Source: an uncultured Rickettsiales bacterium
GTDB taxonomy: Bacteria > Pseudomonadota > Alphaproteobacteria > WRAU01 > CAYYLE01
Direction: 5' to 3'
NCBI GenBank assembly: GCA_964472375.1
Contig: CAYYLE010000010.1
Span: forward strand, 2,421 to 26,420
DNA: 24,000 nucleotides
Part shown: positions 1 to 23,053 of the stretch, in pieces
Position numbering within the stretch: position 1 is the first letter of the stretch
Layout: every line of letters starts with the position of its first letter
The notes under the pieces: generated by a model
What the model was told of the DNA's origin: nothing
What the model saw: the letters and a program-made list of their open reading frames with translations, nothing else
Database searches by the model: none
Translations under genes and position numbers: made by a program

Positions 1-663
1 ATCTGGCCTCTTCCACAAACTGGTCAGATGTGGCTAGAGTATGAAATACTAAAAAACCCTAATGTACCTGGTTATTTTTGTATTTCAACATCATACAGAG
101 AAGAAAAAAACCCAATAGAAGGACGTCATAAACAAATCTTCCCTATGTTTGAGTTTGAAACAAAAGGCGACCTTGAAGTTTTAAAAAATCTAGAAAAAGA
201 ACTAATAGCTTTCTTAGGTATCATGAAGTTAGAAGATATTAAGGATGTAAAATACTCTGAAATGGCAACCAAATATAATGTTAAAACAATAGAAGATGAA
301 CAAGAAGGTAAGCTTTGCAAAGACTATGGTGATGCTGTTTTACTAACCCACTTCCCTTTTTATACAAGCCCTTTCTGGAATATGAAAAAAGATGGCGATG
401 TTGCTAAAAAGATTGATGTTATTATACACGGTCAAGAAACTATCGGCAGTGCAGAAAGAGCAACAAGCAGAGATGAAATGAGAGAGCTTTTTCATACAAT
501 CTCAAATGGTGGCTATGCAGAACTTTTATTTAACAAGTTTGGTGAAAAAAGAGTTCTAAGAGAGCTTGATGATTACCTATCTTTTGATTTTTTTGAAAGA
601 TGTGGCGGTGGCATTGGTGTTACTAGACTAATGAGAGCTTTAGAACTTTCTAAAAAGATATAA
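1..663 (+). CDS. Class II aminoacyl-tRNA-synthetase-like catalytic core, AsnA / archaeal-type asparagine synthetase (AsnRS paralog)-like; 5' end lies outside the window
   Basis: Frame 1 is open from nt 1 (IWPLPQTGQ precedes the listed Met), so the gene is truncated at the window edge. Motif-2-like 'YFCISTSYREEKNPIEGRHKQIFPMFEFE'. AsnRS/AspRS-like 'HFPFYTSPFWNMKKDG..KKIDVIIHGQETIGSAER'. Motif-3-like 'GGGIGVTRLMRAL' resembles E. coli AsnA 'GGGIGQSRL'. No anticodon-binding domain is visible in the part present. The exact activity (Asn synthetase versus another amino-acid ligase) cannot be decided from sequence reading. Confidence 0.65.
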   Translation: MWPLPQTGQMWLEYEILKNPNVPGYFCISTSYREEKNPIEGRHKQIFPMFEFETKGDLEVLKNLEKELIAFLGIMKLEDIKDVKYSEMATKYNVKTIEDEQEGKLCKDYGDAVLLTHFPFYTSPFWNMKKDGDVAKKIDVIIHGQETIGSAERATSRDEMRELFHTISNGGYAELLFNKFGEKRVLRELDDYLSFDFFERCGGGIGVTRLMRALELSKKI

Positions 664-688
664 TTTAAGCTCTTTTTTCTTAAGGTTT

Positions 689-730
689 AAGTGTAGCAAA
701 AGCTTTAAAATTGCTACACTTTAAGCTTTT
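689..730 (+). terminator. Rho-independent terminator candidate downstream of the aaRS-like gene
   Basis: Perfect 11-bp inverted repeat aagtgtagcaa (689-699) / ttgctacactt (711-721) with an 11-nt loop, followed by taagcTTTTTgagaTTTTT. It starts 26 nt after the stop codon. Confidence 0.55.
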
Positions 731-765
731 TGAGATTTTTGAATAATAAATACTAGGTATAAAAA

Positions 766-1395
766 TTGTCTTTAATACTTTCTTTAGATACAAAAAACAA
801 AGAACTTGCCAAGCAAATAATACAAGATACAGTAAAACATGTAGATTGTATTAAAGTTGGGCATATTCTAAGCCCTTATCTATCATACAATGATATAAAT
901 AAAGAACTTTGCAATAAAGATATCTTCTTAGATTTTAAATTATTTGATATACCAAACACAGTTTTTGAAGGCATAAAATCTTATGAAGAAAAAATCAAAA
1001 ACCTTAAATATATTACAATACACGGCACAGCAGAAGATGAAATGATACTAAAATCATTAGAGGCCACTAAAAAAACTACAATCCTTTCTGTAATATCTTT
1101 AACAAGTAGCACTTTAGATAAAAGCTTATTTTTAAAGCACGCTGAAAGAAATATAAAACTAGGTATTAAAGGCTTTATTTGCCCTGTTAGTATGTTGCAA
1201 GATATGCGAAAACACTTTGGTGAAAATATAGAGTTAATCTCACCTGGGATAAGAAACCAAAGCGATAACAACGACCATAAGGAGTTTGCAAGCTCAAGCT
1301 TTGCATATTCTCAAGGTGCTAGCCATATAGTTGTGGGGCGACCTATAATAAATGCAAAAGACCCGAAAACCGAAGTTTTAAAATATTTAAAATAA
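766..1395 (+). CDS. pyrF: Orotidine-5'-phosphate decarboxylase
   Basis: OMPDC signatures: N-terminal 'LILSLD', 'IKVGHIL', 'FLDFKLFDIPNTV' (D-x-K-x-x-D-I-P-N-T) and C-terminal 'HIVVGRPI'. The track start is TTG at 766. At 209 aa it is slightly short for the family. Confidence 0.85.
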   Translation: MSLILSLDTKNKELAKQIIQDTVKHVDCIKVGHILSPYLSYNDINKELCNKDIFLDFKLFDIPNTVFEGIKSYEEKIKNLKYITIHGTAEDEMILKSLEATKKTTILSVISLTSSTLDKSLFLKHAERNIKLGIKGFICPVSMLQDMRKHFGENIELISPGIRNQSDNNDHKEFASSSFAYSQGASHIVVGRPIINAKDPKTEVLKYLK

Positions 1396-1406
1396 AAAAT
1401 AGTGAG

Positions 1407-1817
1407 TTGGCGAAAATGGAAGATAATTTATTTATTAAAAAAAGATTTAAAATGAAATCAGGCGGAATGTCAGATTTTAAAATAGAATGCGATGCACTAA
1501 AAGAAGAAGACTACGATACTATTGCCTTTTTAATCTCACGAAAAGTTAAATACAAAAAAGCCTATGGTGTTCCTAGAGGTGGGCTTGTTTTTGCTGAAAA
1601 ACTAAACAAATATGCAAGCAATGAGTCTGACCTTATACTAATAGCAGAAGATGTTGTTACAACAGGTAAATCTATGGAAGATTTTAAAGAAAAACTAATG
1701 CAAGAAAATAGCTCTTATAAAAATATATTAGGTATTACGGCTTTTAGTCGTGGCCCTTTACCTATGTGGATAAAAAGCGTAATGCACTTAGATAGTTTAT
1801 TTTGGCAAAACGATTAA
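1407..1817 (+). CDS. Minimal type I phosphoribosyltransferase-fold protein (PyrE-like by context only)
   Basis: PRPP-binding motif 'LILIAEDVVTTGKS', N-terminal 'FKMKSGGMSDF' (compare PyrE 'F.LKSG..SPYF') and 'GVPRGGLVFAEKL'. It is only 136 aa, and the segment that normally carries the flexible catalytic loop (PyrE 'RKE.K.HG') is absent. The start may be TTG 1407 or ATG 1416. Confidence 0.6.
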   Translation: MAKMEDNLFIKKRFKMKSGGMSDFKIECDALKEEDYDTIAFLISRKVKYKKAYGVPRGGLVFAEKLNKYASNESDLILIAEDVVTTGKSMEDFKEKLMQENSSYKNILGITAFSRGPLPMWIKSVMHLDSLFWQND

Positions 1818-2569
1818 TTAAAAAGATTTATAAAATGGAAAATATTTCAAAAATAATTTTATCCCCTCCTGTTGGCAGTAGGCTTTTTGTTAAAAATGTA
1901 TCTTCTGTACTTGGCTCTTACACCTTGCACAAAAGAAAAGGACTTTTTTTACAAATTGTCAAAACCATAAGGTTAACCAAAAAAGGCTGGGTTAATAAAA
2001 TAGGGCTAAGAAACAAAGGAGTTGAAAACATAAAAGTAAGAAGAAAAATAGATATTATATCTATATCTTCTTTGCAAGAAAATGATTTTGAAAATATATT
2101 AGAAATATTACTAAAACATAAAGCAAACAAAACTATAAAAACCAACACCATAGAAATAAACATTAGTTGCCCTAATGAAAATGTTTTTAATATAAAAGAA
2201 GATGTTTTACAAAAATACTTGCAAAACTTTCAGATTATTGTAAAAACATCACCCTGTATTAAAGAAAATACCTACGCTAAACTTATAAAACTTGGTGTTA
2301 AAAACTTCCATATAAGCAATACTTTACCATCTGAAAGAGGTGGTCTTTCTGGTAAAATCCTTAAACCTATGAACATAGAAACCATAAAAACACTAAGAAG
2401 AAAATACAAAGAAAGCATTTATATTATAGCAGGCGGTGGCATATATAGCTATAAAGACCTTTTAGATTATAAAAATGCTGGTGCTGATAGTTTTTCTTTA
2501 TCTACTTTGTTTTTCAACCCTTTTAAAACCTTGTTTTTTTTAATAAGTTGCTATAAAAATGGTGTTTAA
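1802..2569 (+). CDS. pyrD: Dihydroorotate dehydrogenase-like flavoprotein (class 1-like TIM barrel)
   Basis: 'VNKIGLRNKGVENI' (N.xGL.N.G), 'IEINISCPN', 'ISNTLP', 'GGLSGKILKP' and 'IIAGGGIYSYKDLLDYKNAGAD' match the DHOD motif order. The track start (TTG 1802) overlaps the upstream gene by 16 nt; ATG at 1835 (MENISK...) is a plausible alternative. It is short (244-255 aa) for the family. Confidence 0.7.
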   Translation: MAKRLIKKIYKMENISKIILSPPVGSRLFVKNVSSVLGSYTLHKRKGLFLQIVKTIRLTKKGWVNKIGLRNKGVENIKVRRKIDIISISSLQENDFENILEILLKHKANKTIKTNTIEINISCPNENVFNIKEDVLQKYLQNFQIIVKTSPCIKENTYAKLIKLGVKNFHISNTLPSERGGLSGKILKPMNIETIKTLRRKYKESIYIIAGGGIYSYKDLLDYKNAGADSFSLSTLFFNPFKTLFFLISCYKNGV

Positions 2570-2678
2570 ATAGTATTAAAAGTAAAAAACACATCAAGAA
2601 AAACTTAAAAAAATTATAATGCAAAACATTGCAGAAGATAAAATATTTATAGGTATCTAATTTTTAAATCTATTTAAA

Positions 2679-2705
2679 AAAACAACCCCTGTTGTTTTAC
2701 TTTTT
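2679..2705. terminator. Weak AT-rich hairpin, possible (bidirectional) terminator
   Basis: aaaacaac (2679-2686) / gttgtttt (2691-2698) with loop ccct. It is followed by acTTTTT on the + strand and preceded by an A-run, which gives a T-run on the - strand. Only two G:C pairs, so it is weak. Confidence 0.3.
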
Positions 2706-3038
2706 AACAAAATGTTTTTATTTATTGGTTTGCTTTAAAGTCTGTTTATTTTATAAATCTTTTTAAAAAGATAAAGTACTTAAACCTTTACGCCCACAAC
2801 AGACAGCTACTAAAACACCAATCATAATAAAATATCAGTGAAATAAATAGCCTACTATGTAAGTATTTACCCTTATGCAGAATCCACAAAATTAAAGACT
2901 TTTGGTATTTTTGGCTAGGCGTGTGTTCTAGGTGTTGTATAGCACATCAACCAAAGGTGCTATCTAGCTTGTAAAAAACAACCAACAAAAACAAAAACAA
3001 ACTATGTTTTAAAATACACTTTATTTATTAAGTCCTTC

Positions 3039-4268
3039 TTAAGGTATCTTACTTAAAAAAGAAGTTCCATGATTAATTCCATCTTTAAGATTGAAATAAT
3101 CAGCTACAGTTTTAGCAACATCAGCAAGAGTTTGCCTTTCACCAATTGTTGATGCATTTTTTTGCTTGTTTTGTTTTGTAAAAACTAAAAGCGGAACTTT
3201 CTCTCGTGTATGTTGGCTATGACCAATTAAAGGGTCGTTGCCATGGTCGGCCATTATAAGTAAAACATCTTCTTTTTGCATATTATCTATTATCTGCTTT
3301 ATGCCATTGTCTGCTTTTTGTAGTATATTGTAGTACTCTAGTGCATCTTCTTTATGCCCTGCTAAGTCGGTTTCTTGTACATTTAAGCAAATAAAAGCTT
3401 TTTTGTTTTCAAGGCTTTGTAAAGACTTTATAGTATTTTCAAAAACCTTTAAGGTATCAACAGCCGGAACGCTTAAACCACTTGGGTTATATACAATATC
3501 AGCCACTTTACCAATTAAATGCACATCAATATTATTCTTACTTAAGCAATAAGGTAGTTGCTTTTTGTAATCAACACCATAACCTAAATGCACAACATTG
3601 TAACCATTGTTGTAAATACCACTTTTAGGCGTATTTATACCAAAGCTACCTTGTTTATATTCTCTTGCATCTAAAACATCATTAATTGTTACCTTAGTGC
3701 CACCAAAACATATAACACGAGTAACTTCTGTTACACTTCTAACTTTTTTGCCAATTTCTAACACTTTGTTAAAGTCTATATAATCTAAACATGCACTAAC
3801 ATTATAAGCAAGACCCTTTTGTGCCTCAATATTGTCAGCTATTGTTAATGCATTTTCTACCACAAGCAAGCTTTTTCCAAAGTCTTGGAATCTTTCTACT
3901 TTATAGCCTTCTTTTAACAAAGTATTTTCAACAGTATCTATATCTTGGTCAAATGTTTTATAGCTAGGCTTAAAAGGTGTAGAGCCCATAATTTCCTGAT
4001 GACCTTGAAAAGTATCTGCACCATAGTGCATAAGGTTAGATTGCCCATAAATACAAGATTGTGATTTTTTCATAAAATCAGTTTCAAAGCCTGCTGAGTT
4101 CATAAGCCCTAGACTTTCAAGCGTTTTTAGTTTAAAACTTGGCACTTTTTTTATTATACTTTTTATAGTATTTGAGCCTACATCTTCTTGCTTTGTTATT
4201 TTAGTATCTTCCATGTAACCTATGCCAAATCCATCTAAAACAACAACTATAAACCTACTTTTATTCAT
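3039..4268 (-). CDS. yhfW: YhfW-like phosphopentomutase-family metalloenzyme (alkaline-phosphatase superfamily)
   Basis: 409 aa (E. coli YhfW is about 408 aa). 'FIVVVLDGFGIGYMED', 'GADTFQGHQEIMG', 'VVHLGYGVD', 'GKVADIVYNPSG', 'AFICLNVQETDLAGHKED' and 'MADHGNDPLIGHSQHTREKVPLLV' are collinear with E. coli YhfW as I remember it, and with DeoB-type metal and phosphoryl-transfer motifs. It is the last gene of the operon. Confidence 0.85.
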   Translation of the reverse strand: MNKSRFIVVVLDGFGIGYMEDTKITKQEDVGSNTIKSIIKKVPSFKLKTLESLGLMNSAGFETDFMKKSQSCIYGQSNLMHYGADTFQGHQEIMGSTPFKPSYKTFDQDIDTVENTLLKEGYKVERFQDFGKSLLVVENALTIADNIEAQKGLAYNVSACLDYIDFNKVLEIGKKVRSVTEVTRVICFGGTKVTINDVLDAREYKQGSFGINTPKSGIYNNGYNVVHLGYGVDYKKQLPYCLSKNNIDVHLIGKVADIVYNPSGLSVPAVDTLKVFENTIKSLQSLENKKAFICLNVQETDLAGHKEDALEYYNILQKADNGIKQIIDNMQKEDVLLIMADHGNDPLIGHSQHTREKVPLLVFTKQNKQKNASTIGERQTLADVAKTVADYFNLKDGINHGTSFLSKIP

Positions 4269-4295
4269 AATAAAAAAACACTTTTTTAAAAGATT

Positions 4296-5450
4296 TTATT
4301 TTATTCTTTCGCCTAAAGCAGTATAAACCGCTTTTACAATTGGCTTGCCTGTGCTTATTTTATCTACAAGCACAACCTTAGCCCTTGTAGTAAATATTTG
4401 AGTTCTAAAGCAAGCTATTACAGGAGTTTCTATTTTTAGTTTAGATTTTAACCCAATGTGATAATCAATACTTTCACTATCTTGCTTGCAAACTTTGTGG
4501 GTTTTGTAATCACTTGTCAAAACATTTGCAAGATGCGACCTTCTATAATAACCACCGCCATAAATACAGCTTTTGTCTTTTAAACTATGAGAAACTGAAG
4601 AGTAATAAAGCAAAGATTGTTTTTCTTCTTGCTTGTTATTTTCCAATGCATGCAAAGGTGTTGTACCTGTTGCCCCGTTGCCAACTTCGGCATAGTTGCC
4701 ACCTTGTTTTTTCACAAGGTTTATAGTGCTTTTACATGCAACTGAAGGTAAGTTTATTTGGTTAACATTAACATCGTGTGCTTTTAAAATAGCATTTGCT
4801 TTATGTATAGTTTTAATGTTATTTGTCACTGCAACACTATTATTTTCTCTATCAAACAAAAAACAAGGAAAAGAAGTAATCCCATTTATTTTTACATATT
4901 CTAGCTTTTTAACTTCTTTTACAAAATTTTCAAATAAATCAAGCTCTACCCCGCTTTCTTGCTGTGGGTATATAGTATCTTTTGTTGCATCTAAGGGTTT
5001 TAACATTATATCTTGCACAATACCTAGCTTTTTAGCGGTTTCGTTAATTGCTTGGGCTTTTTCTAACGAATATACTGTAATAATACCAACGCCTTTTTGC
5101 ATAAAGCCTTCAAGCATTTTATTAGGGCATTGCACTAAATGACCCAAGTGAGCTATTTTTACATCATTTTTATGCATAACTTGGGCTTCTACAAAGTCTA
5201 CTGGCATAATACCTTTAAAGCCAAACTCTACTGCTTTTTGGGCTAAAAATGGGTTAAATCCTATATGTTTTGGCACAAAAAATAAATTAACACCATGTTT
5301 TTCTGCTTCTTTTACAATGCTTTGCATATTTTTGTATGTTGTTTCTAAATCAATAACATACGAATTAGGCTCAATTAAATTTTGTTTAGCTAGATAAAAA
5401 GTAGCATCTATAAAACTTTTATTACTTTTAACAAGGTTATTTAAAAACAT
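4296..5450 (-). CDS. yhfX: YhfX-like PLP-binding-barrel protein (alanine racemase N-terminal domain family)
   Basis: 384 aa. 'NLFFVPKHIGFNP' is a candidate PLP-lysine context. 'HLGHLVQCP', 'ITVYSLEKA', 'SFPCFLFD', 'CIYGGGYYRRSH', 'SIDYH' and 'CFRTQIFTTR' match remembered E. coli YhfX blocks. Its start codon lies 2 nt after the yhfS stop. Confidence 0.8.
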   Translation of the reverse strand: MFLNNLVKSNKSFIDATFYLAKQNLIEPNSYVIDLETTYKNMQSIVKEAEKHGVNLFFVPKHIGFNPFLAQKAVEFGFKGIMPVDFVEAQVMHKNDVKIAHLGHLVQCPNKMLEGFMQKGVGIITVYSLEKAQAINETAKKLGIVQDIMLKPLDATKDTIYPQQESGVELDLFENFVKEVKKLEYVKINGITSFPCFLFDRENNSVAVTNNIKTIHKANAILKAHDVNVNQINLPSVACKSTINLVKKQGGNYAEVGNGATGTTPLHALENNKQEEKQSLLYYSSVSHSLKDKSCIYGGGYYRRSHLANVLTSDYKTHKVCKQDSESIDYHIGLKSKLKIETPVIACFRTQIFTTRAKVVLVDKISTGKPIVKAVYTALGERIK

Positions 5451-5452
5451 GT

Positions 5453-6547
5453 TTAGCTTATATAATCCATAGTTTTATTTAAAATATTTACAACAGTAAA
5501 GGCACTTGCCCGCATTGGGTTAACCCTTATAAAATAATCTTTCATTTTTGGGTTATCTTTTTGAAAAGTCCCTGAAACATTATAAACCATAGGGGCAATT
5601 TCATATTTTGACTCTGCACCAACAGGGTAAGAAACCGCCCCAAACAATACAGCATTTTCAACCACTTTGCTAGCAATAGGGCTTTCAAGCTCTATTATTG
5701 CAACTTTTGACTGTGCATTTGCTACAAAAGCTTTTTTTAAGCCTTTGATTTTTGTGCTGTTTATAGTATTTACAAGGTTTTCAACCTCTTTTGCCTGTAT
5801 TGCAAGGGCAACAGGTGCATACACAAGCCCTCTTAGGCATTCTAACGCCTCATGCCCTTGTACTTTACTACCACCTGAATAATTAGCTTTACTTATAAAA
5901 TCATAAAGTTCTTTTTTACAAACAATACAGCCAATGCCTTCTTTACCAAGCAATTTAAATAAAGAAAAACAAGAAACATCAGCCCCTAGCTCTACTCCTA
6001 TTTTTTCAACTTTCATAACTGCATAGTTATCGTCTGTTATTATGTTTATATCTTTAAAATTTTCTTTAATGTGTTTTATAAAGTCTTTAGCACTGTAATA
6101 ATCAGTAATTTTTTGCCTTGTTATTTGCAATAAAACAGTTTTTATATTATTTTCTTCAATGGTTTTACAAACACTTGCAAGGTTATGAAAATCTGCCTCA
6201 AAAATATTTGCCTGTAAATCTTGTAAGCTAGAAAGCGTTGTAGGGTAAACAGGTGCATTGTGTACTAAAATATTTTTATTTTCTTGCAAATAATACCTTA
6301 AAGCATAGTATATTGCCCCAGTGCCTGCATTACGCACAAGCTTTGCATGAGGAAAATTAAAAAAATCAGCTATTGTGTTTTCTGTTAGGCTTGTGTGTTT
6401 TGGCTGTAGCCCATCTTTAAAAATTCCAACTTGCCCAAGCTCTAAAATCTCATTATTTTTAAAATTTTTAGTTATTTTATCAACAAGTTGAAACTGTTTT
6501 TCTTGTGCTTGCTCTAAGGTTATTGATTTAAGAACATAACTTTCCAT
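5453..6547 (-). CDS. yhfS: YhfS-like PLP-dependent (fold type I, aminotransferase/SelA-like) enzyme
   Basis: 364 aa. 'NAGTGAIYYAL', 'VHNAPVYPTT', 'TDDNYAVMKV', 'FSLFKLLGKEGIG' (candidate PLP Lys), 'YSGGSKVQGHEALECLRGLVYAPV', 'ANAQSKV', 'YPVGAESKYEIAP' and 'RVNPMR' are collinear with remembered E. coli YhfS. Confidence 0.8.
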   Translation of the reverse strand: MESYVLKSITLEQAQEKQFQLVDKITKNFKNNEILELGQVGIFKDGLQPKHTSLTENTIADFFNFPHAKLVRNAGTGAIYYALRYYLQENKNILVHNAPVYPTTLSSLQDLQANIFEADFHNLASVCKTIEENNIKTVLLQITRQKITDYYSAKDFIKHIKENFKDINIITDDNYAVMKVEKIGVELGADVSCFSLFKLLGKEGIGCIVCKKELYDFISKANYSGGSKVQGHEALECLRGLVYAPVALAIQAKEVENLVNTINSTKIKGLKKAFVANAQSKVAIIELESPIASKVVENAVLFGAVSYPVGAESKYEIAPMVYNVSGTFQKDNPKMKDYFIRVNPMRASAFTVVNILNKTMDYIS

Positions 6548-6564
6548 CTTTTTTTTAAACCTTT

Positions 6565-7437
6565 TTACAAATTAAAAATTCTTTTAGGATTTGTAACTAG
6601 TGTTTTGTGTAAGGTTTGCTCTAAAACACCATGTTTTAATGCATTTTTTACAAAGTTATCTAACAAATAGTTATAACCAATTCCACCTTTATCTTTTAAA
6701 TGGCTATTGTAGGTCAAGTCAACCGACATTGTGATTTGGTTGGCAAAGCCTTGTTTTTCAACTTCTTTTAAAAGCTCTATTCTATTTTCATCAAGGTTGT
6801 ATTTGGTTTTTCCTATGGTATCAAAGGCAATATTTACCCCTGTTTTTAAAATATCTATAACATAATTAGCATCTTTAGATAAATCCATATGCGATATTAC
6901 AACAGTTTCAAGGTTAACTTTTTCTTGCTTAAATAGCTCAACCTGCTCTTTAGCAAGTGTAGCAAGTGTTGTGTGGGTTACAATAGGTATATTAAGCTTT
7001 TTAGCGACATATGAAGATGCTTTAAATAGCTTAATTTCAATATCGCTTAAAAAATCTCTTTTATCTGTTCCTATTTCACCTATCACCCTTGCTTTAATAT
7101 TTGTGCCATCAATGCCTTGTGTTATTTCTTTTTCTATAAAATCAGCTATTTGTTCTTTGGTAAAAATATAGGCTTCTTCTGGTAAGTAGGGCTCTTTATA
7201 ATACCCTGTTGATTGCAAAATATTTATACCTGTTTTTTCAGATATTTCTTGCACTTTTAAAGGGTTTCTGCCCATTCCTTTTGCTGTAACATCAACAATA
7301 TAGTCAACACCTTTTTGCTTTAACTCTTTAAGCTCTTTTATTGTTTGGCTTGTATTGTCTATAAACCTATCTTGTTTATCTTCTGTGCGTAAATCTAAAA
7401 CCATATGCTCGTGTGCATAAACCATATGTTTAAACAT
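6565..7437 (-). CDS. php: Phosphotriesterase homology protein (amidohydrolase superfamily, binuclear metal centre)
   Basis: 290 aa (E. coli Php is 292 aa). 'YAHEHMVLDL' (HxH), 'GMGRNP', 'TGINILQSTGYY', 'QGIDGTNIKARVIGEIGT' (Glu at the bridging-ligand position), 'VTHT', 'ISHMDL', 'AFDTIGK', 'MSVDL' and 'SHLKDKGGIGYNYLL' give a near block-for-block match to E. coli Php. Confidence 0.9.
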   Translation of the reverse strand: MFKHMVYAHEHMVLDLRTEDKQDRFIDNTSQTIKELKELKQKGVDYIVDVTAKGMGRNPLKVQEISEKTGINILQSTGYYKEPYLPEEAYIFTKEQIADFIEKEITQGIDGTNIKARVIGEIGTDKRDFLSDIEIKLFKASSYVAKKLNIPIVTHTTLATLAKEQVELFKQEKVNLETVVISHMDLSKDANYVIDILKTGVNIAFDTIGKTKYNLDENRIELLKEVEKQGFANQITMSVDLTYNSHLKDKGGIGYNYLLDNFVKNALKHGVLEQTLHKTLVTNPKRIFNL

Positions 7438-7458
7438 AACAAAACCTTTTTAAAAAAA

Positions 7459-8742
7459 TTAAAACAAACTAGGTAAAGCCAGAATGTTTACTAAAATACC
7501 CGTAAAAATTGCTGCAACAGGTCCTATTACCATTTCAACAAGAGGTTTTTTAACTATTTTGTTAAATGTATACAAAGTAACTAAAACAAAAATACCAATA
7601 TTAGGGTCAATTTGGTAGCAAGCCATTGCACCACCTGCAAGTAGTGATATTTCTAAAACTTTATTGGTTGCTGTTCTTATATAATCACCACATTTTCTTA
7701 CCCCTGGTGATTTATCTAAAACAACTGCAATTTTGTTTAATAGCAAAACCTCGCAAGCTATTGCTACTGCACCTGCAAAAAATGCTAAAATTGGTTGGTC
7801 AATCAATAAAAGACCAACTACAAAAACTATTTTCATACCAGAAGGTGAATAAACCCCCGTTGCAATTGCTGTTGTAGCCACAAGAGGTATAAAGCCCAAA
7901 GCCCTTGCAAAAGATGCTAAAGTAGCCTCGCTATATTTACCATCGCTAAGTAAAGCTTGTGATATTGGACCTTCTGCCATAATAACAAGAGAAGAAGCAA
8001 CAGCAACAAAGCCACCTGTAATTGCTAAAAGCAAAATGTTTGACTTTATGCGTTTAACTCTTTCAGAAAATATCTGCAAAAGCTGTTGGTTGCTGTTTTG
8101 GTTGTCTGTATTTTTTTCTCTTATTGCTATTGCAAGCATAACAACCATACCAAAAGCTAAAGACATTCCAATAGGCTCTAAAGTAACCTTATAAGATGCA
8201 ACTTCAAAACTACCTAACATTTTTAAGCTCTGGTAAAATAAAGCTGTTGCAATTGCAAGTGCAAATCCCTTAAAAGAGCCATAAACACCACCAATAACCA
8301 AAGCAGGGAATACTGCAAAACCAATCATTACAGGTTTACCGATTAAAGCCATTGCAGGTAAAAAATCAATCGGTAGCAGGGCAAAAATATCAACAACTAT
8401 TTCTAACCCTTTTAAAATAGCATAACCAAAAACACCACCTGTTACAAAAGATGCTAAAGACCCCTTATTGTTATTGGGAAAAAAAGTTCCTATAATATCT
8501 GTACCAAGCAAAATACTATGCACAAGCAATACTTTTGTTGCAATAGATATTGGTATACCAAAACCAATAAGTAACCCAAAACTCATTGCAAAAGATGTTG
8601 TAGCAAGGCTTGCTTTGTTTATTCTACCTTCTACAAACTCTGGAATTATCGGTCTTAAACCATCATTAAAAACTGCTATATTTTTGTTTGCAAGCAAGCT
8701 TGAAAAACTTGCCACTAATATTATTGCTATATAAGGTAACAT
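7459..8742 (-). CDS. yhfT: YhfT-like polytopic inner-membrane permease
   Basis: 427 aa and highly hydrophobic, with roughly 10-12 predicted TM stretches. N-terminal 'AVFNDGLRPIIPEFVEGRINK' matches E. coli YhfT 'AVFHDGIRPILPQLIEGYMNR'. 'GFIPLVATTAIATGVY' is also shared. Confidence 0.8.
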   Translation of the reverse strand: MLPYIAIILVASFSSLLANKNIAVFNDGLRPIIPEFVEGRINKASLATTSFAMSFGLLIGFGIPISIATKVLLVHSILLGTDIIGTFFPNNNKGSLASFVTGGVFGYAILKGLEIVVDIFALLPIDFLPAMALIGKPVMIGFAVFPALVIGGVYGSFKGFALAIATALFYQSLKMLGSFEVASYKVTLEPIGMSLAFGMVVMLAIAIREKNTDNQNSNQQLLQIFSERVKRIKSNILLLAITGGFVAVASSLVIMAEGPISQALLSDGKYSEATLASFARALGFIPLVATTAIATGVYSPSGMKIVFVVGLLLIDQPILAFFAGAVAIACEVLLLNKIAVVLDKSPGVRKCGDYIRTATNKVLEISLLAGGAMACYQIDPNIGIFVLVTLYTFNKIVKKPLVEMVIGPVAAIFTGILVNILALPSLF

Positions 8743-8760
8743 GTTAAGACCTGTGTTTTT

Positions 8761-9123
8761 TTACAATGTATTATTAATCAGCCTTATAACAATAGGAACA
8801 ATAAAATCACTTGACTGTGCTACAAAACCAAAAGCTTTTTTGCCTTCATTAAATACTTTTGTTATTTCTTCTTCATTCATTGTATTGCCAGGTGATGCAA
8901 GCGTTATACAGCTTTCTACACCAACAAGTGCAATAGGCATTGCCAAAGCACCGCCTCCGCCTGTCATACACGCACCTAGATAGTAATCAACCTCATTATT
9001 TTTTAGTGCCATTGCTCCTTCAAGGTCTGACATTACTTGAAACTCAATGCTAGAATGTGCATACTTTTTTGCTATTTCTAGCACTTTTTCTTTTTCTATC
9101 TGCCCTGCTATTGCTATTTTCAT
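8761..9123 (-). CDS. yhfU: YhfU-like DUF2620 protein
   Basis: 120 aa (E. coli YhfU is about 117 aa). 'MKIAIAGQ...', 'DLEGAMALKNNEVDYYLGACMTGGGGALAMPIAL' matches the family 'D.EAAM.VK.G.LDYYIGAC.TG.G.AL'. Its ATG shares one nucleotide with the yhfY stop (TAATG). Confidence 0.75.
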   Translation of the reverse strand: MKIAIAGQIEKEKVLEIAKKYAHSSIEFQVMSDLEGAMALKNNEVDYYLGACMTGGGGALAMPIALVGVESCITLASPGNTMNEEEITKVFNEGKKAFGFVAQSSDFIVPIVIRLINNTL

Positions 9124-9491
9124 TAAGCTACTCCTTCATTTTCTAATACTAAAGATGAAAGGTATATTAAAACATACTCTTTCTCTCCTTTATCAAACTC
9201 TAAACCTATAACTTGCTCTACTTTTTTTAGCTCTTTTTCTGCTGTTTTTAGTGTTTTTTCATCAAGCTCTTGCAAAATATCTGCCACATCTAAAGTTTCT
9301 GCTTTGTTTTCTTTTATTCTTTGCAAAGCTTTTGCAAGGTGGATAAAAAACATAGACCCTGCACTTTCTTCTACCTTAAACCCTTGGTTTTTAAACATTT
9401 CTACTGTTTTTAAAACATCTTCAAAGGTCTTATCATCTATTTGGTTGCTATCTTTTAGAAGTGAAATCTTACCTTTTAAGTCTAAGTTCAT
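9123..9491 (-). CDS. yhfY: YhfY-like stand-alone PRD-domain protein
   Basis: 122 aa (E. coli YhfY is about 120 aa). It is helical, with the PRD-type 'FFIHLAKALQRIKENK' histidine context. An AGGTGA Shine-Dalgarno lies 6-7 nt upstream of the ATG. Confidence 0.7.
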   Translation of the reverse strand: MNLDLKGKISLLKDSNQIDDKTFEDVLKTVEMFKNQGFKVEESAGSMFFIHLAKALQRIKENKAETLDVADILQELDEKTLKTAEKELKKVEQVIGLEFDKGEKEYVLIYLSSLVLENEGVA

Positions 9492-9506
9492 TTATTTATC
9501 ACCTAC

Positions 9507-10424
9507 TTAATATTCAGGAATTATTTGACCACTAACAACCTTTTGCTGGTAAGCAATAACCTCTTTACTATCAATTGCCATTTTAAGTATTGTTTTTAAT
9601 AAAGTATTATCCCTGTGAACAACAAGGGCTGCTTCTGTAAAGTCTGTATTGTATGTTATATCTTCAAGAATTATTTTATTTTCATCTATACCTGCAATTG
9701 CAGATTGCTGAAAACTCCAAACTGTTGCATCTATTGTAGAAGAACGCAATGAGTCTAGAATTTTGTAAGAGCTTAAGTTTTTGTATGTAATTTTTTTATC
9801 TTTAAAGCTATCATGCTCAGTAAGTTTAGCAACAAGTAGCTTATGGTCTTGCGACATAATATCAACACCCATTGTAATATTTTGTTTTTCAAGACAATCT
9901 TTATTATAAATAGCCATATGCTTTTGTACATAAGAGCCTTTACCAAAACTTTTAACAACTTCTAATTTACTTTCTTTATCACTTTTTAGGTAGGTATCTA
10001 TTGCATGTTTAGATACTATTGTAAAGTCATATATTCTGTCTTCTGTTCGCAAAAGCCTGTTTAAAGCCCCTCTTGTATAAGCAAAAGATGCCCTTGTATA
10101 GTTGTGCAACATTGCAATTATAGAGCTTGCTAAACCTTCATAAAGCTTTGAGTAAGGCAAAGGCATAGAACCTAAAATATGGTTGATTTCTGCATATTCT
10201 AAAAGCTTACTATAGTCAATGGTATCTATAAATGTTCCTGTTTGCCCCTTAGAAACAAAAGAAACAACACCTTCTTGCTCTAGTAGTTTTATGGCTCTTT
10301 GAACAATTCCACGCGAACTACCTGCTAAAATGCAGTATTCATCTACTGTTTTTATTCTATCGTTTTGATTATAAATAAATAAGTCTTGTGCTATTTGCTT
10401 AACAACTTTTTGTGTTTTATTCAT
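9507..10424 (-). CDS. yhfZ: YhfZ-like transcriptional regulator (N-terminal GntR-type winged HTH plus C-terminal YhfZ/periplasmic-binding-like domain)
   Basis: 305 aa (E. coli YhfZ is about 301 aa). 'IKTVDEYCILAGSSRGIVQRAIKLLEQEGVVSFVSKGQTGTFI' is a typical GntR-like wHTH. It is the first gene of the eight-gene operon, immediately downstream of the promoter/operator candidate. Confidence 0.75.
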   Translation of the reverse strand: MNKTQKVVKQIAQDLFIYNQNDRIKTVDEYCILAGSSRGIVQRAIKLLEQEGVVSFVSKGQTGTFIDTIDYSKLLEYAEINHILGSMPLPYSKLYEGLASSIIAMLHNYTRASFAYTRGALNRLLRTEDRIYDFTIVSKHAIDTYLKSDKESKLEVVKSFGKGSYVQKHMAIYNKDCLEKQNITMGVDIMSQDHKLLVAKLTEHDSFKDKKITYKNLSSYKILDSLRSSTIDATVWSFQQSAIAGIDENKIILEDITYNTDFTEAALVVHRDNTLLKTILKMAIDSKEVIAYQQKVVSGQIIPEY

Positions 10425-10450
10425 ATCTCTTGTTTTTTTAGATAAAAGTA

Positions 10451-10464
10451 TACAATATATTGTA
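10451..10464. promoter_or_regulatory. Perfect 14-bp palindrome TACAATATATTGTA, candidate operator of the yhf operon
   Basis: TACAATATATTGTA equals its own reverse complement. It is flanked by the related hexamers GTATAC (10448-10453), TGTACA (10461-10466) and TATACA (10471-10476). It lies 27-40 nt upstream of the yhfZ ATG, just downstream of a consensus -10 box. Confidence 0.4.
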
Positions 10465-10468
10465 CATT

Positions 10469-10474
10469 ATTATA
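10469..10474 (-). promoter_or_regulatory. Consensus -10 hexamer (TATAAT on the minus strand) for the yhfZ operon
   Basis: The minus strand reads ...TAGTTGgctatttgaggtatttgTATAATaatgtacaatatattgta... This is a perfect TATAAT with a weak -35 (TAGTTG) at 17-nt spacing. In an AT-rich genome a TATAAT can occur by chance. Confidence 0.35.
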
Positions 10475-21243: not shown

Positions 21244-21388
21244 AAATTCAATTTAGATACAAAATAAAAGTAAGCCGATTTTACAATATTAGCAAGAGGT
21301 TAGCAACCTACTTAACTGCTTTTTCACAAAGCATTGTAACAATCGGTAAAACTTATTATAAATCACTAACTATTAAATTTCTCTAAAA

Positions 21389-22105
21389 CTAATTTATTTC
21401 TTTTTTTGCTAAAACAGTAGCAACAAGAGAGTTACCTGTTACATTAACCGATGTTCTTAGCATATCAAACAATCTATCAACATCTAAAATAAGTGCAATA
21501 CCATCAACAGGAATATGCTTTGCATTAATATCATGGTTAACCCAACTGAAGGAACGCCAGCTGTACCAATTGATACTAAAACAGCTAAAGAAACAATGGA
21601 TGCATAATCTATAATTGACATATCAACCGTATACATTAACTAAAACACGGTTGCTATACCTTGCATTATTGCAGTACCGTTCATGCTTATAGTTGCACCT
21701 AAAGGAAGAGCAAAACTAGAAATATCGTTAGAAACACCTAAAGGTGCAACTTTCATTATAATATCATTAAGCCCATTAAAAGTCTTTCTAAATGTTTAAA
21801 AAACCTTTAACAGCTCCTGCGTGTTCTTTTTCTATTTTTAAAACAACAATGTCAATAAGCAGCGTAATCACTATTAGTTGCAGCATATTTGAAGAAACCA
21901 TAGGCGAAAGTGTATTACTAGGAACATATCTAAAAAAACACAGCTGTTGCTATTGCAAAAAAAACAATTGCAAGCGATATTGATGAAATCATAAAAACAC
22001 TATTGTTTTAGCACATAAGCTTGCAAACCTTAAAATACTACCTACATTTATATACCAAGTGTTAAATAAGAAAATACAACAGGAACAGTAATAAGACTTA
22101 TTAAT
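21389..22105 (-). pseudogene. Decayed dicarboxylate/amino-acid:cation symporter (DAACS, GltP/DctA family) gene
   Basis: No ORF of 60 aa or more on this strand, but minus-strand translation gives collinear DAACS blocks in different frames. 'LITVPVVFSYLTLGI*', 'GSILRFASLCAKTIVFL*', 'NMLQLIVITLLIDIVVLKIEKEHAGAVKGFLNI*'. Then 'NGLNDIIMKVAPLGVSNDISSFALPLGATISMNGTAIMQGIATVF*LMYTVDMSIIDYASIVSLAVLVSIGTAGVPSVGLTMIL', and after a frameshift 'IPVDGIALILDVDRLFDMLRTSVNVTGNSLVATVLAKKEIN*' (stop at 21389-21391). There is an in-frame TAG at 21640-21642. About 85 aa appear deleted at the APLGV|SNDISSF junction (about 21731-21739). The N-terminus and start codon are missing. Confidence 0.8.
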
Positions 22106-22123
22106 TGGTTGTTTTTTTAAGTA

Positions 22124-22163
22124 CAAAAAAACAGGCAAAATATTTTTATAAAAACTTTGCCTG
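22124..22163 (-). terminator. Rho-independent terminator of the outer-membrane protein gene
   Basis: The minus strand reads CAGGCAAAgtttttataaaaatatTTTGCCTG followed by TTTTTTT. The 8-bp stem is 22132-22139 / 22156-22163 and the T-run is 22124-22131. It begins 33 nt after the stop codon. Confidence 0.6.
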
Positions 22164-22195
22164 CTTAAATAAAGTAATCTTTAAAGTAAAATATA

Positions 22196-23053
22196 CTACA
22201 ATAAATCACTTAAATTAGGTGTTACAGTGGTCCATAATATTTTAATAGTGTTGTCTCTTTGTAATGGTTTATCTTGGTTCATTACATAATGCTCGTAAGC
22301 AATACCCAACCTCATAGGTATTCCAAACGCAAAAAATGTTGTTTTAACACCAATACCAACAGGAAGGTCAAGTTTTTGCCCGCCTCTTGCATCATAGTTT
22401 ATATCTACAATAGGAGACATATAAACTTGAAATCTTGGGTTAAAATCATAAGAAAGCATATATTGTAGCTGTGCCTGGTTATCCGTTGCACTATCTACTA
22501 AATCAAAAGTTTGGGTATAAATAAAACCTGCTACAAGACCTTTTTTTATATAAAGTGAAATAAGACCAAAACCAGCTTGCCAATTTTCTGATGTATACAC
22601 TAAATCATTATGGAAAGGTGCTGCAACCATTGGCCCTGCTCCATAAATAAAACCTTCTGATTTATTGGGTCCAAGCATAGTAAGCCAACGAAAATCTGTT
22701 AGCTCTGTGTTGTATCTTCCATCTTCATAAGGTCCTACCCTGCCTATTGCTTTTTCATCTACTGTTAAAAAACCTAAAGTTGGTCTGTTAACCAAAACAA
22801 ATTGGTCATCTTTACCAATTTTGGTTGGTAAAACAGGTTGAAACATGAAAAAATCACCTTTTACAGTCTCACCTGTTTGCTTATTTTCAAAGCCCATATA
22901 GTGGTTTTCTGTTGCAAAATACCAAAGATCTGATAATGGATTAGAAAGCTTTTTTGAAACAACACCAATGTCTTGGTGTTGGCCCTTAGCTTCATTAGCA
23001 TGCACTACAACAGGTAGCAACAAAGCTATGAAAGCTAGTAAAAAATTAATCAT
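22196..23053 (-). CDS. Secreted protein, putative outer-membrane beta-barrel (possibly MetA-pathway/phenol-degradation-like transporter family)
   Basis: The signal peptide 'MINFLLAFIALLLPVVVHA|NEA' is clear. The protein is rich in Gly and aromatics, with an alternating beta-strand-like pattern (e.g. 'GFGLISLYIKKGLVAGFIYTQTF', 'GIPMRLGIAYEHYV'). The N-proximal 'LSNPLSDL' recalls that family. The C-terminus ('NLSDLL') lacks the usual terminal aromatic residue, so the barrel assignment is tentative. Confidence 0.45.
   Translation of the reverse strand: MINFLLAFIALLLPVVVHANEAKGQHQDIGVVSKKLSNPLSDLWYFATENHYMGFENKQTGETVKGDFFMFQPVLPTKIGKDDQFVLVNRPTLGFLTVDEKAIGRVGPYEDGRYNTELTDFRWLTMLGPNKSEGFIYGAGPMVAAPFHNDLVYTSENWQAGFGLISLYIKKGLVAGFIYTQTFDLVDSATDNQAQLQYMLSYDFNPRFQVYMSPIVDINYDARGGQKLDLPVGIGVKTTFFAFGIPMRLGIAYEHYVMNQDKPLQRDNTIKILWTTVTPNLSDLL

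Follow-up and report, generated by a model that had tools for sequence, protein, structure and literature searches.

The yhfZ-yhfY-yhfX-yhfW-php-yhfU-yhfT-yhfS cluster of Escherichia coli K-12 is a long-standing puzzle for which there are crystal structures but no substrate, and the literature searched, in which most subscription journals were not covered, assigns no function to the yhf/php genes. In the Salmonella D-glucosaminate (dga) pathway, DgaE and DgaF form the exit to 2-keto-3-deoxy-6-phosphogluconate (KDPG). The EF_0829-EF_0839/AHA_3910 cluster (TIGR03577-03583) has the same exit and, like the yhf cluster, combines a stand-alone PRD protein, a homologous small Cys/Gly-rich protein, membrane proteins, a metal amidohydrolase, and a fold type I pyridoxal 5′-phosphate (PLP) enzyme, with no kinase. 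Clusters of this type are headed by a PRD and SFCGS pair and encode a deacetylase, a DgaE-family lyase, and DgaF, with no kinase or canonical Enzyme II (EII) of the phosphotransferase system (PTS), as in an enterobacterial example (L115, 6497-15325) that also carries a lactonase and a PRD/EIIA activator. They differ from the yhf cluster in their membrane proteins and in having no YhfX or YhfW; by this comparison, the yhf operon resembles the dga and EF_0829-EF_0839 systems in layout and is not a member of them.

Here we describe the yhf/php operon of an uncultured Rickettsiales bacterium, located in a window of 24,000 nucleotides (contig CAYYLE010000010.1, positions 2,421 to 26,420). All eight yhf/php families are co-located on the minus strand at 3039-10424, with the same genes, families, and catalytic residues as the E. 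coli cluster. In contrast to E. coli, the order is yhfZ-Y-U-T-php-S-X-W, the arrangement of most Bacillota loci; protein identities to the E. coli counterparts are 28-44%, and the host is an alphaproteobacterium with a 1.2-Mb genome (31% GC, 92% complete). A DNA search of E. coli genomes with this stretch was blank, as expected at such a distance, and a single-sequence locus search returned no match. The explanation we favor, tentatively and at a little under even likelihood, is that of an ordinary functional yhf/php operon with which a gut alphaproteobacterium scavenges an N-acylated amino-sugar derivative. The compound would be a hexosamine or an amino-sugar acid, perhaps with an amino acid attached. 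This reading draws on orthology, intact active sites, purifying selection, conservation of the operon and its operator, protein folds, and gene co-occurrence.

The operon and its four enzymes

The initial annotation described a four-enzyme core, with the enzymes Php, YhfS, YhfX, and YhfW suggesting catabolism of a phosphorylated, amine-bearing small molecule. The enzymes are intact, but the conserved unit is the eight-gene operon. The comparison set comprised ~100 related loci, and all eight genes occur in 64 of the 70 well-covered loci from other genomes; yhfS is absent in four (one of which also lacks yhfW) and yhfZ in two. An amidase-signature gene is a ninth operon member in 30 of these 70 loci, and none was found in the 92% complete host genome. 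The GntR-type regulator YhfZ (9507-10424, minus strand; NF041241, 265 bits against a cut-off of 260) is preceded by a 22-bp palindrome (10447-10468, minus strand) directly downstream of a TATAAT box (10469-10474). The palindrome recurs 5′ of yhfZ in 36 of 73 related loci and also 5′ of yhfY in 25 of 41, where ~0.06 occurrences would be expected per 230 bp in either position, and this recurrence predicts a conserved operator.

All four enzymes are encoded by intact open reading frames, with every motif quoted in the initial annotation at its expected place. The catalytic residues are invariant across ~80 orthologous loci, in alignments of 78-91 orthologues (the T86 position of YhfW being Thr or Ser), so these motifs are not chance occurrences, and the absence of substituted metal ligands or PLP lysines argues against pseudo-enzymes. 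Among the best-supported sites in three gut metagenomes, strain differences are mostly silent, both in the four enzyme genes (14 of 16 synonymous) and in the coding parts of the operon (20 of 26). Because the catalytic residues are invariant and the strain differences mostly silent, the four enzymes are judged to be live, and the operon as a whole, on the same sequence evidence, to be functional and under purifying selection.

Php (6565-7437, minus strand, 290 aa) is a phosphotriesterase-homology amidohydrolase orthologous to E. coli Php (1BF6/4LEF, E 2e-53). The ligands of its binuclear site (H9, H11, E121, H155, H183, and D240) align with those of 1BF6 and are invariant in 81 sequences, and E121 provides the Glu bridge, in place of a carbamylated Lys, that the initial annotation had described for E. 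coli Php. Membership in the phosphotriesterase (PTE) Pfam family could point to organophosphate detoxification, and the broken remnants that are all a relative of the same order retains could point to pseudo-enzymes or a decaying foreign insert, but we give this group of explanations almost no credence. The Glu bridge and a score of 64 bits with the organophosphate hydrolase model NF041153, against a cut-off of 500, dispose of detoxification, which had been discounted from the outset. Decay is refuted by the invariant active sites, the conserved operator, the largely synonymous strain differences, and the GC and GC3 of the operon, which equal those of the flanking core genes. The PTE family also includes sugar lactonases, and Php matches the phospho-furanose lactonase model NF045706 at E 4e-23, far below its cut-off. 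PTER is an N-acetyltaurine hydrolase, so that the family includes N-acyl amidases (PMC11374699), and the PTER structure 9EFA matches Php at E 8e-27.

YhfW (3039-4268, minus strand, 409 aa), of the alkaline-phosphatase superfamily, scores 522 bits with PRK12383 (cut-off 254) and conserves the metal ligands D12, D301, H305, D341, H342, and H353, the T86 nucleophile position, and K254. Its phosphopentomutase-type assignment holds in that phosphopentomutases are its closest relatives, but it scores below the equivalog models for DeoB (PRK05362, 170 against 256; TIGR01696, 131 against 341). The host's own DeoB, 27% identical to YhfW, is encoded elsewhere in the genome within a nupC-deoC-deoA-deoB cluster. 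With the phosphopentomutase machinery in place, YhfW is nevertheless a paralogue of DeoB, not DeoB itself.

YhfX (4296-5450, minus strand, 384 aa; PF21279) is a fold type III PLP enzyme, with K61 as the PLP lysine, that is orthologous to E. coli YhfX (4KBX, E 2e-75); its predicted model (pLDDT 96) matches that structure at Z 56. The next folds are D-Thr aldolase (Z 28.9), alanine racemase (Alr, 26.8), and D-Ser dehydratase (26.4). The earlier description as alanine-racemase-type is upheld for the fold and the lysine and goes no further, as the Alr hallmarks are lacking and the aldolase and dehydratase are at least as close. By-hand comparison of motifs, rather than superposed coordinates, places Glu255 in an EPG-like motif, as in LysA, where Alr has an Arg at the pyridine nitrogen, and indicates a short hairpin without the second catalytic Tyr of Alr. 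The invariant Arg349 and Gln351 seemingly fall at the strand that carries the His and Cys/Asp metal ligands of D-Thr aldolase and D-Ser dehydratase, in the C-terminal domain where profile alignments to Alr, LysA, and the aldolases are unreliable. The host genome has a separate Alr. Thus 'racemase-type' applies to the fold of YhfX and not to its reaction, which sets the enzyme apart from classical alanine racemases. A possible phosphate ligand is Arg304, which the yhf-type YhfX clade conserves and a divergent ATP-binding cassette (ABC)-type clade lacks.

YhfS (5453-6547, minus strand, 364 aa) is a fold type I PLP enzyme orthologous to E. coli YhfS (4J8L, E 2.5e-89), and D172 and the PLP lysine K198 are invariant across orthologues. 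Its best non-self profile matches are methionine gamma-lyase and Cys/Met lyases (E 3e-10, far below equivalog cut-offs). Of the transaminase- or lyase-like character first suggested, only the second half survives: YhfS resembles Cys/Met lyases, not transaminases. The DgaE/SelA-like models TIGR01437 and NF047797 had no match at E 0.01, and the relation of YhfS to DgaE is weak (profile probability 61%). Taken across the four enzymes, DeoB, Alr/D-threonine aldolase, methionine gamma-lyase, and PTER share folds and cofactor ligands with their yhf counterparts, but identities are only 12-30% and the specificity residues differ.

Gene neighbourhoods and the substrate

Genes for amino-sugar metabolism recur beside YhfX. 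A class I NagB is encoded 33-261 bp from five clostridial yhf clusters, with the NagB of L045 scoring above its cut-off; NagB-II-like SIS proteins occur near YhfX in L094, L161, and L171, an SIS gene occupies the usual place of yhfS in L166, and L169 has a NagB-like gene. Members of a divergent YhfX clade lack the other yhf genes and are accompanied by a ROK regulator resembling NagC, an M20 deacylase of the ArgE/DapE type, and an ABC importer for monosaccharides; other divergent YhfX loci encode PIG-L deacetylases, ROK sugar kinases, and NagB-II-like SIS proteins. These rhizobial, roseobacterial, and actinobacterial operons (ROK, M20, sugar ABC importer, and YhfX, in some cases with SIS/NagB and a ROK kinase) share with the yhf operon the PLP-site residues, an amide hydrolase, and amino-sugar-type neighbors, and differ in relying on ABC or APC uptake, in having no YhfY, YhfU, YhfT, YhfS, or YhfW, and in a YhfX without Arg304. 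YhfX relatives were found in at least 526 stretches of a one-genome-per-species collection; one alphaproteobacterial locus (L088, 8316-9515) has a stand-alone divergent YhfX with no other yhf gene within ~8 kb.

Php is replaced or joined by a range of amide hydrolases, namely the M20 deacylase, PIG-L, the amidase-signature gene, and a PBP4B-like hydrolase (three loci). By guilt by association, the loci repeatedly suggest a scheme in which the compound is imported, phosphorylated, and deacylated and passes through a YhfX step before an amino-hexose phosphate is deaminated. An amino-sugar substrate is favored because hexosamine-6-phosphate deaminases, deacylases, and sugar kinases recur with YhfX. 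The proposed catabolism of an amine-bearing, phosphorylated small molecule is therefore supported and narrowed in favor of its amino-sugar option; the phosphate, as discussed below, is only probable and would be added on uptake.

Two isolated cases, with Eda/KdgK lying upstream of L047 and MurQ lying upstream of L040, were not counted. The glmS, rpe-gph-trpS, and cysG flanks reflect a chromosomal position shared by related genera. Separately, a Bacillus thuringiensis plasmid (L093, 5840-16367) carries yhfY-U-T-php-S-X but neither yhfW nor yhfZ; ATP-grasp genes and a gene for an MFS transporter come next, and the YhfX of the plasmid has Gln at position 304; this is possibly a biosynthetic re-use of the yhf module.

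The substrate may instead be an amino acid-sugar conjugate or a cell-wall fragment, such as an O-glycosyl-Ser/Thr, glycosyl-Asn, muramic acid or its lactam, or a glycated amino acid, from which the PLP enzymes would eliminate a sugar phosphate while amidases trim the peptide part. This alternative overlaps the N-acyl amino-sugar explanation and differs mainly in the roles of the PLP enzymes. It would account for the likeness of YhfS to C-S/C-O lyases and for the accessory hydrolases of the amidase-signature and PBP4B-like kinds; deglycases are also found among SIS proteins, and the invariant Arg349 and Arg356 of YhfX could hold a carboxylate. However, the best scores of the SIS neighbors are those with NagB-II and GlmS, FrlB is not among their matches listed at E 1e-12, MurQ, NagA, and NagB are already present in the host, and no conjugate is directly evidenced; we consider it an unlikely alternative.

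Uptake and the source of the phosphate

The remaining three genes encode YhfT (7459-8742, minus strand), a polytopic membrane protein and putative permease (PF10797, E 2.5e-146), YhfU (DUF2620; 8761-9123, minus strand), a truncated RpiB-fold protein with Cys52 in a Gly-rich loop and a candidate phospho-carrier or isomerase, and YhfY (9123-9491, minus strand; PF00874), a stand-alone PRD protein with His51. The YhfY residues His51, R58, and E103 are present in 78 of 78 sequences, and Cys52 of YhfU in 79 of 79. Profile comparison relates YhfY to the EF_0829 PRD (96% probability) and YhfU to EF_0830/SFCGS (E 3e-5 over 110 columns). In 77 of 78 loci yhfU and yhfT are neighbors, including loci in which the enzyme genes are reshuffled, and YhfY stays with yhfU and yhfT in loci where YhfZ is absent (L166, L093, L032, and L040).

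In the loci with YhfY, YhfU, and YhfT, sugar kinases are not a recurring element of the accessory gene set, whereas a ROK sugar kinase is present in the ABC/APC variants L170 and L171. The phosphate is probably added on uptake, a step that depends on genes outside the four enzymes. ptsH directly follows the yhf clusters L068, L083, and L049, with ptsI in two of the three, and in L166 both ptsH and ptsI are embedded in the yhf cluster, which has a DeoR gene and YhfY but no yhfZ that could be found. The most economical reading of these suggestive sequence relationships would be a relay from HPr to YhfY His51, YhfU Cys52, and the substrate. By extension, YhfY, YhfU, and YhfT may together be a PTS Enzyme II of a class not described before, in which a regulatory domain is combined with an isomerase fold, and may supply a new PLP-dependent route for an N-acyl amino-sugar derivative, with a YhfX reaction new for fold type III; we regard this as possible while leaning mildly against it. 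Two observations were left out of the assessment. The predicted complex of YhfT and YhfU, scoring 0.03, was counted neither for nor against, and the YhfU fusions P0121-P0123 are singletons, P0121 lacking the first 100 YhfT residues and lying in a decayed operon. An Atlas search with YhfT gave no usable match.

The fold of YhfU allows a different assignment, in which YhfT is a secondary permease, YhfU an RpiB-like aldose-ketose phosphate isomerase and thus a fifth enzyme, and YhfY a regulator that senses the PTS. The substrate would then enter already phosphorylated, or as a pentose or ribosyl-amino-acid conjugate, and YhfW and YhfU would yield a pentose 5-phosphate. RpiB is the top fold (Z 10-12; at best 11.9, with an rmsd of 2.5 over 111 aligned residues), ahead of PTS IIB-mannitol (Z 8.6), and Cys52 aligns with the loop of the RpiB catalytic Cys. 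Further, YhfW is closest to phosphopentomutases, the host has transketolase, Rpe, and DeoC, and PRD domains are classically regulatory. Conversely, YhfU does not have the N-terminal Asp-His of RpiB (Gly7-Gln8 in its place) and at 120 aa against ~150 is some 30 residues shorter, with no full-length C-terminal phosphate-binding segment; in the host genome, PF02502 matches only the separate rpiB and not YhfU. The tight pairing of yhfU with yhfT despite enzyme reshuffling and the persistence of YhfY without YhfZ are also difficult to reconcile with an isomerase and a simple regulator, and the deaminase and kinase neighbors point to hexosamines. On balance, we consider this assignment improbable.

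Under the N-acyl amino-sugar explanation, YhfT would import the substrate while phosphate passes from Enzyme I and HPr through YhfY His51 and YhfU Cys52. Php would then take off the N-acyl group or open an amide or lactone, and YhfX could carry out C-alpha chemistry on the freed amine (epimerization, aldol cleavage, or elimination), with YhfS, dispensable in some loci, acting as a beta/gamma-lyase or ammonia-lyase. YhfW would shift the phosphate between positions, and the product would enter central metabolism as a hexosamine 6-phosphate via NagB and, in this host, not as KDPG.

It should be noted that several points weigh against this explanation and its transport component. All of the functional evidence is neighbourhood-based, NagB lies beside only five of ~80 yhf clusters and ptsH beside four, and related clusters are not independent cases. 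The loci were collected via YhfX, which biases the presence counts towards it, and the ABC-type YhfX clade, without Arg304, may act on another substrate. The best fold predicted for YhfU is RpiB and not PTS IIB, YhfT resembles neither EIIC proteins nor EF_0832/0833 to a detectable degree, and a Pfam scan of the operon proteins matched no EII domain. The need for a phosphomutase after an uptake step that phosphorylates position 6 is left unexplained.

Host metabolism and origin of the operon

The topA of the host is closest to alphaproteobacterial proteins, its order has only small genomes (0.9-1.5 Mb), and the stretch is present in animal gut metagenomes of two studies; none of the listed datasets containing it is an RNA dataset. 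By analogy, we infer that the host resembles the PTS-bearing Hepatincolaceae/WRAU01 gut symbionts (PMC13515547). It encodes an HPr-Enzyme I fusion (contig C8, 15355-17430) and four EIIC genes, along with NagA, NagB, MurQ, transketolase, Rpe, RpiB, DeoC, and its own DeoB and Alr. Since the host has its own DeoB, RpiB, Alr, NagA, and NagB, the yhf enzymes are not housekeeping substitutes. A cellobiose-family PTS cluster (contig C14, 7225-11877) includes a probable MupG/DUF871 gene, identified by eye, and together with MurQ, NagA, and NagB suggests scavenging of cell-wall sugars by the host.

This metabolic map bears on a D-glucosaminate-type route, in which an amino-sugar acid 6-phosphate would be deaminated to KDPG and Php would be a phospho-sugar lactonase. 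The sister EF_0829-EF_0839 cluster ends in DgaE/DgaF, and the weak relation of YhfS to DgaE and the distant lactonase relative of Php could be read the same way. However, Eda (KDPG aldolase), DgaF, and KdgK were not found in the 92% complete host genome, which disfavors a KDPG exit, and none of the three recurs inside yhf clusters, so that the route appears quite improbable.

Of 11 further genomes of the order, two carry the operon and a third (L178, 8418-10006) has broken remnants of yhfY, yhfT, and yhfS, an operon loss in progress. A search of 401 genomes of the class for YhfT gave no further genuine match. The closest relative, L001, is 58-82% identical in most genes and lies at a different chromosomal site. 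In a concatenated tree, this operon and L001 form a group with the two copies from the same order (SH-aLRT 99), surrounded mainly by sequences from Bacillota, a placement that fits an old acquisition followed by losses.

Elsewhere in the window, the operon is separated from a convergent one by a 469-bp non-coding gap (2570-3038) with more strain variation than the coding parts, including several substitutions and indels at 2682-2871. The convergent genes (1-2569, plus strand) are one for a class II synthetase paralogue similar to asparagine synthetase A, then a short pyrF, a PRTase-like gene of 136 aa, and a pyrD of 255 aa; apart from the PyrF domain, none reaches its equivalog cut-off. Some 950 bp without an open reading frame of 80 aa (21244-22195) precede a gene (22196-23053, minus strand) for a secreted-looking protein of 285 aa that has no NCBIfam match and may be an outer-membrane beta-barrel.

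The four-enzyme observation was already annotated in databases, and the operon is an orphan system without an assigned substrate. Should the PTS-like reading of YhfY, YhfU, and YhfT be true, it would represent a new transporter class. The small metabolic map of the host, with NagA/NagB, transketolase, and its own DeoB, RpiB, and Alr, and with KDPG aldolase not found, limits the fate of the product. And because purifying selection maintains the entire operon with its operator in so small a genome, the substrate is likely to be a worthwhile nutrient for this alphaproteobacterium in the gut.

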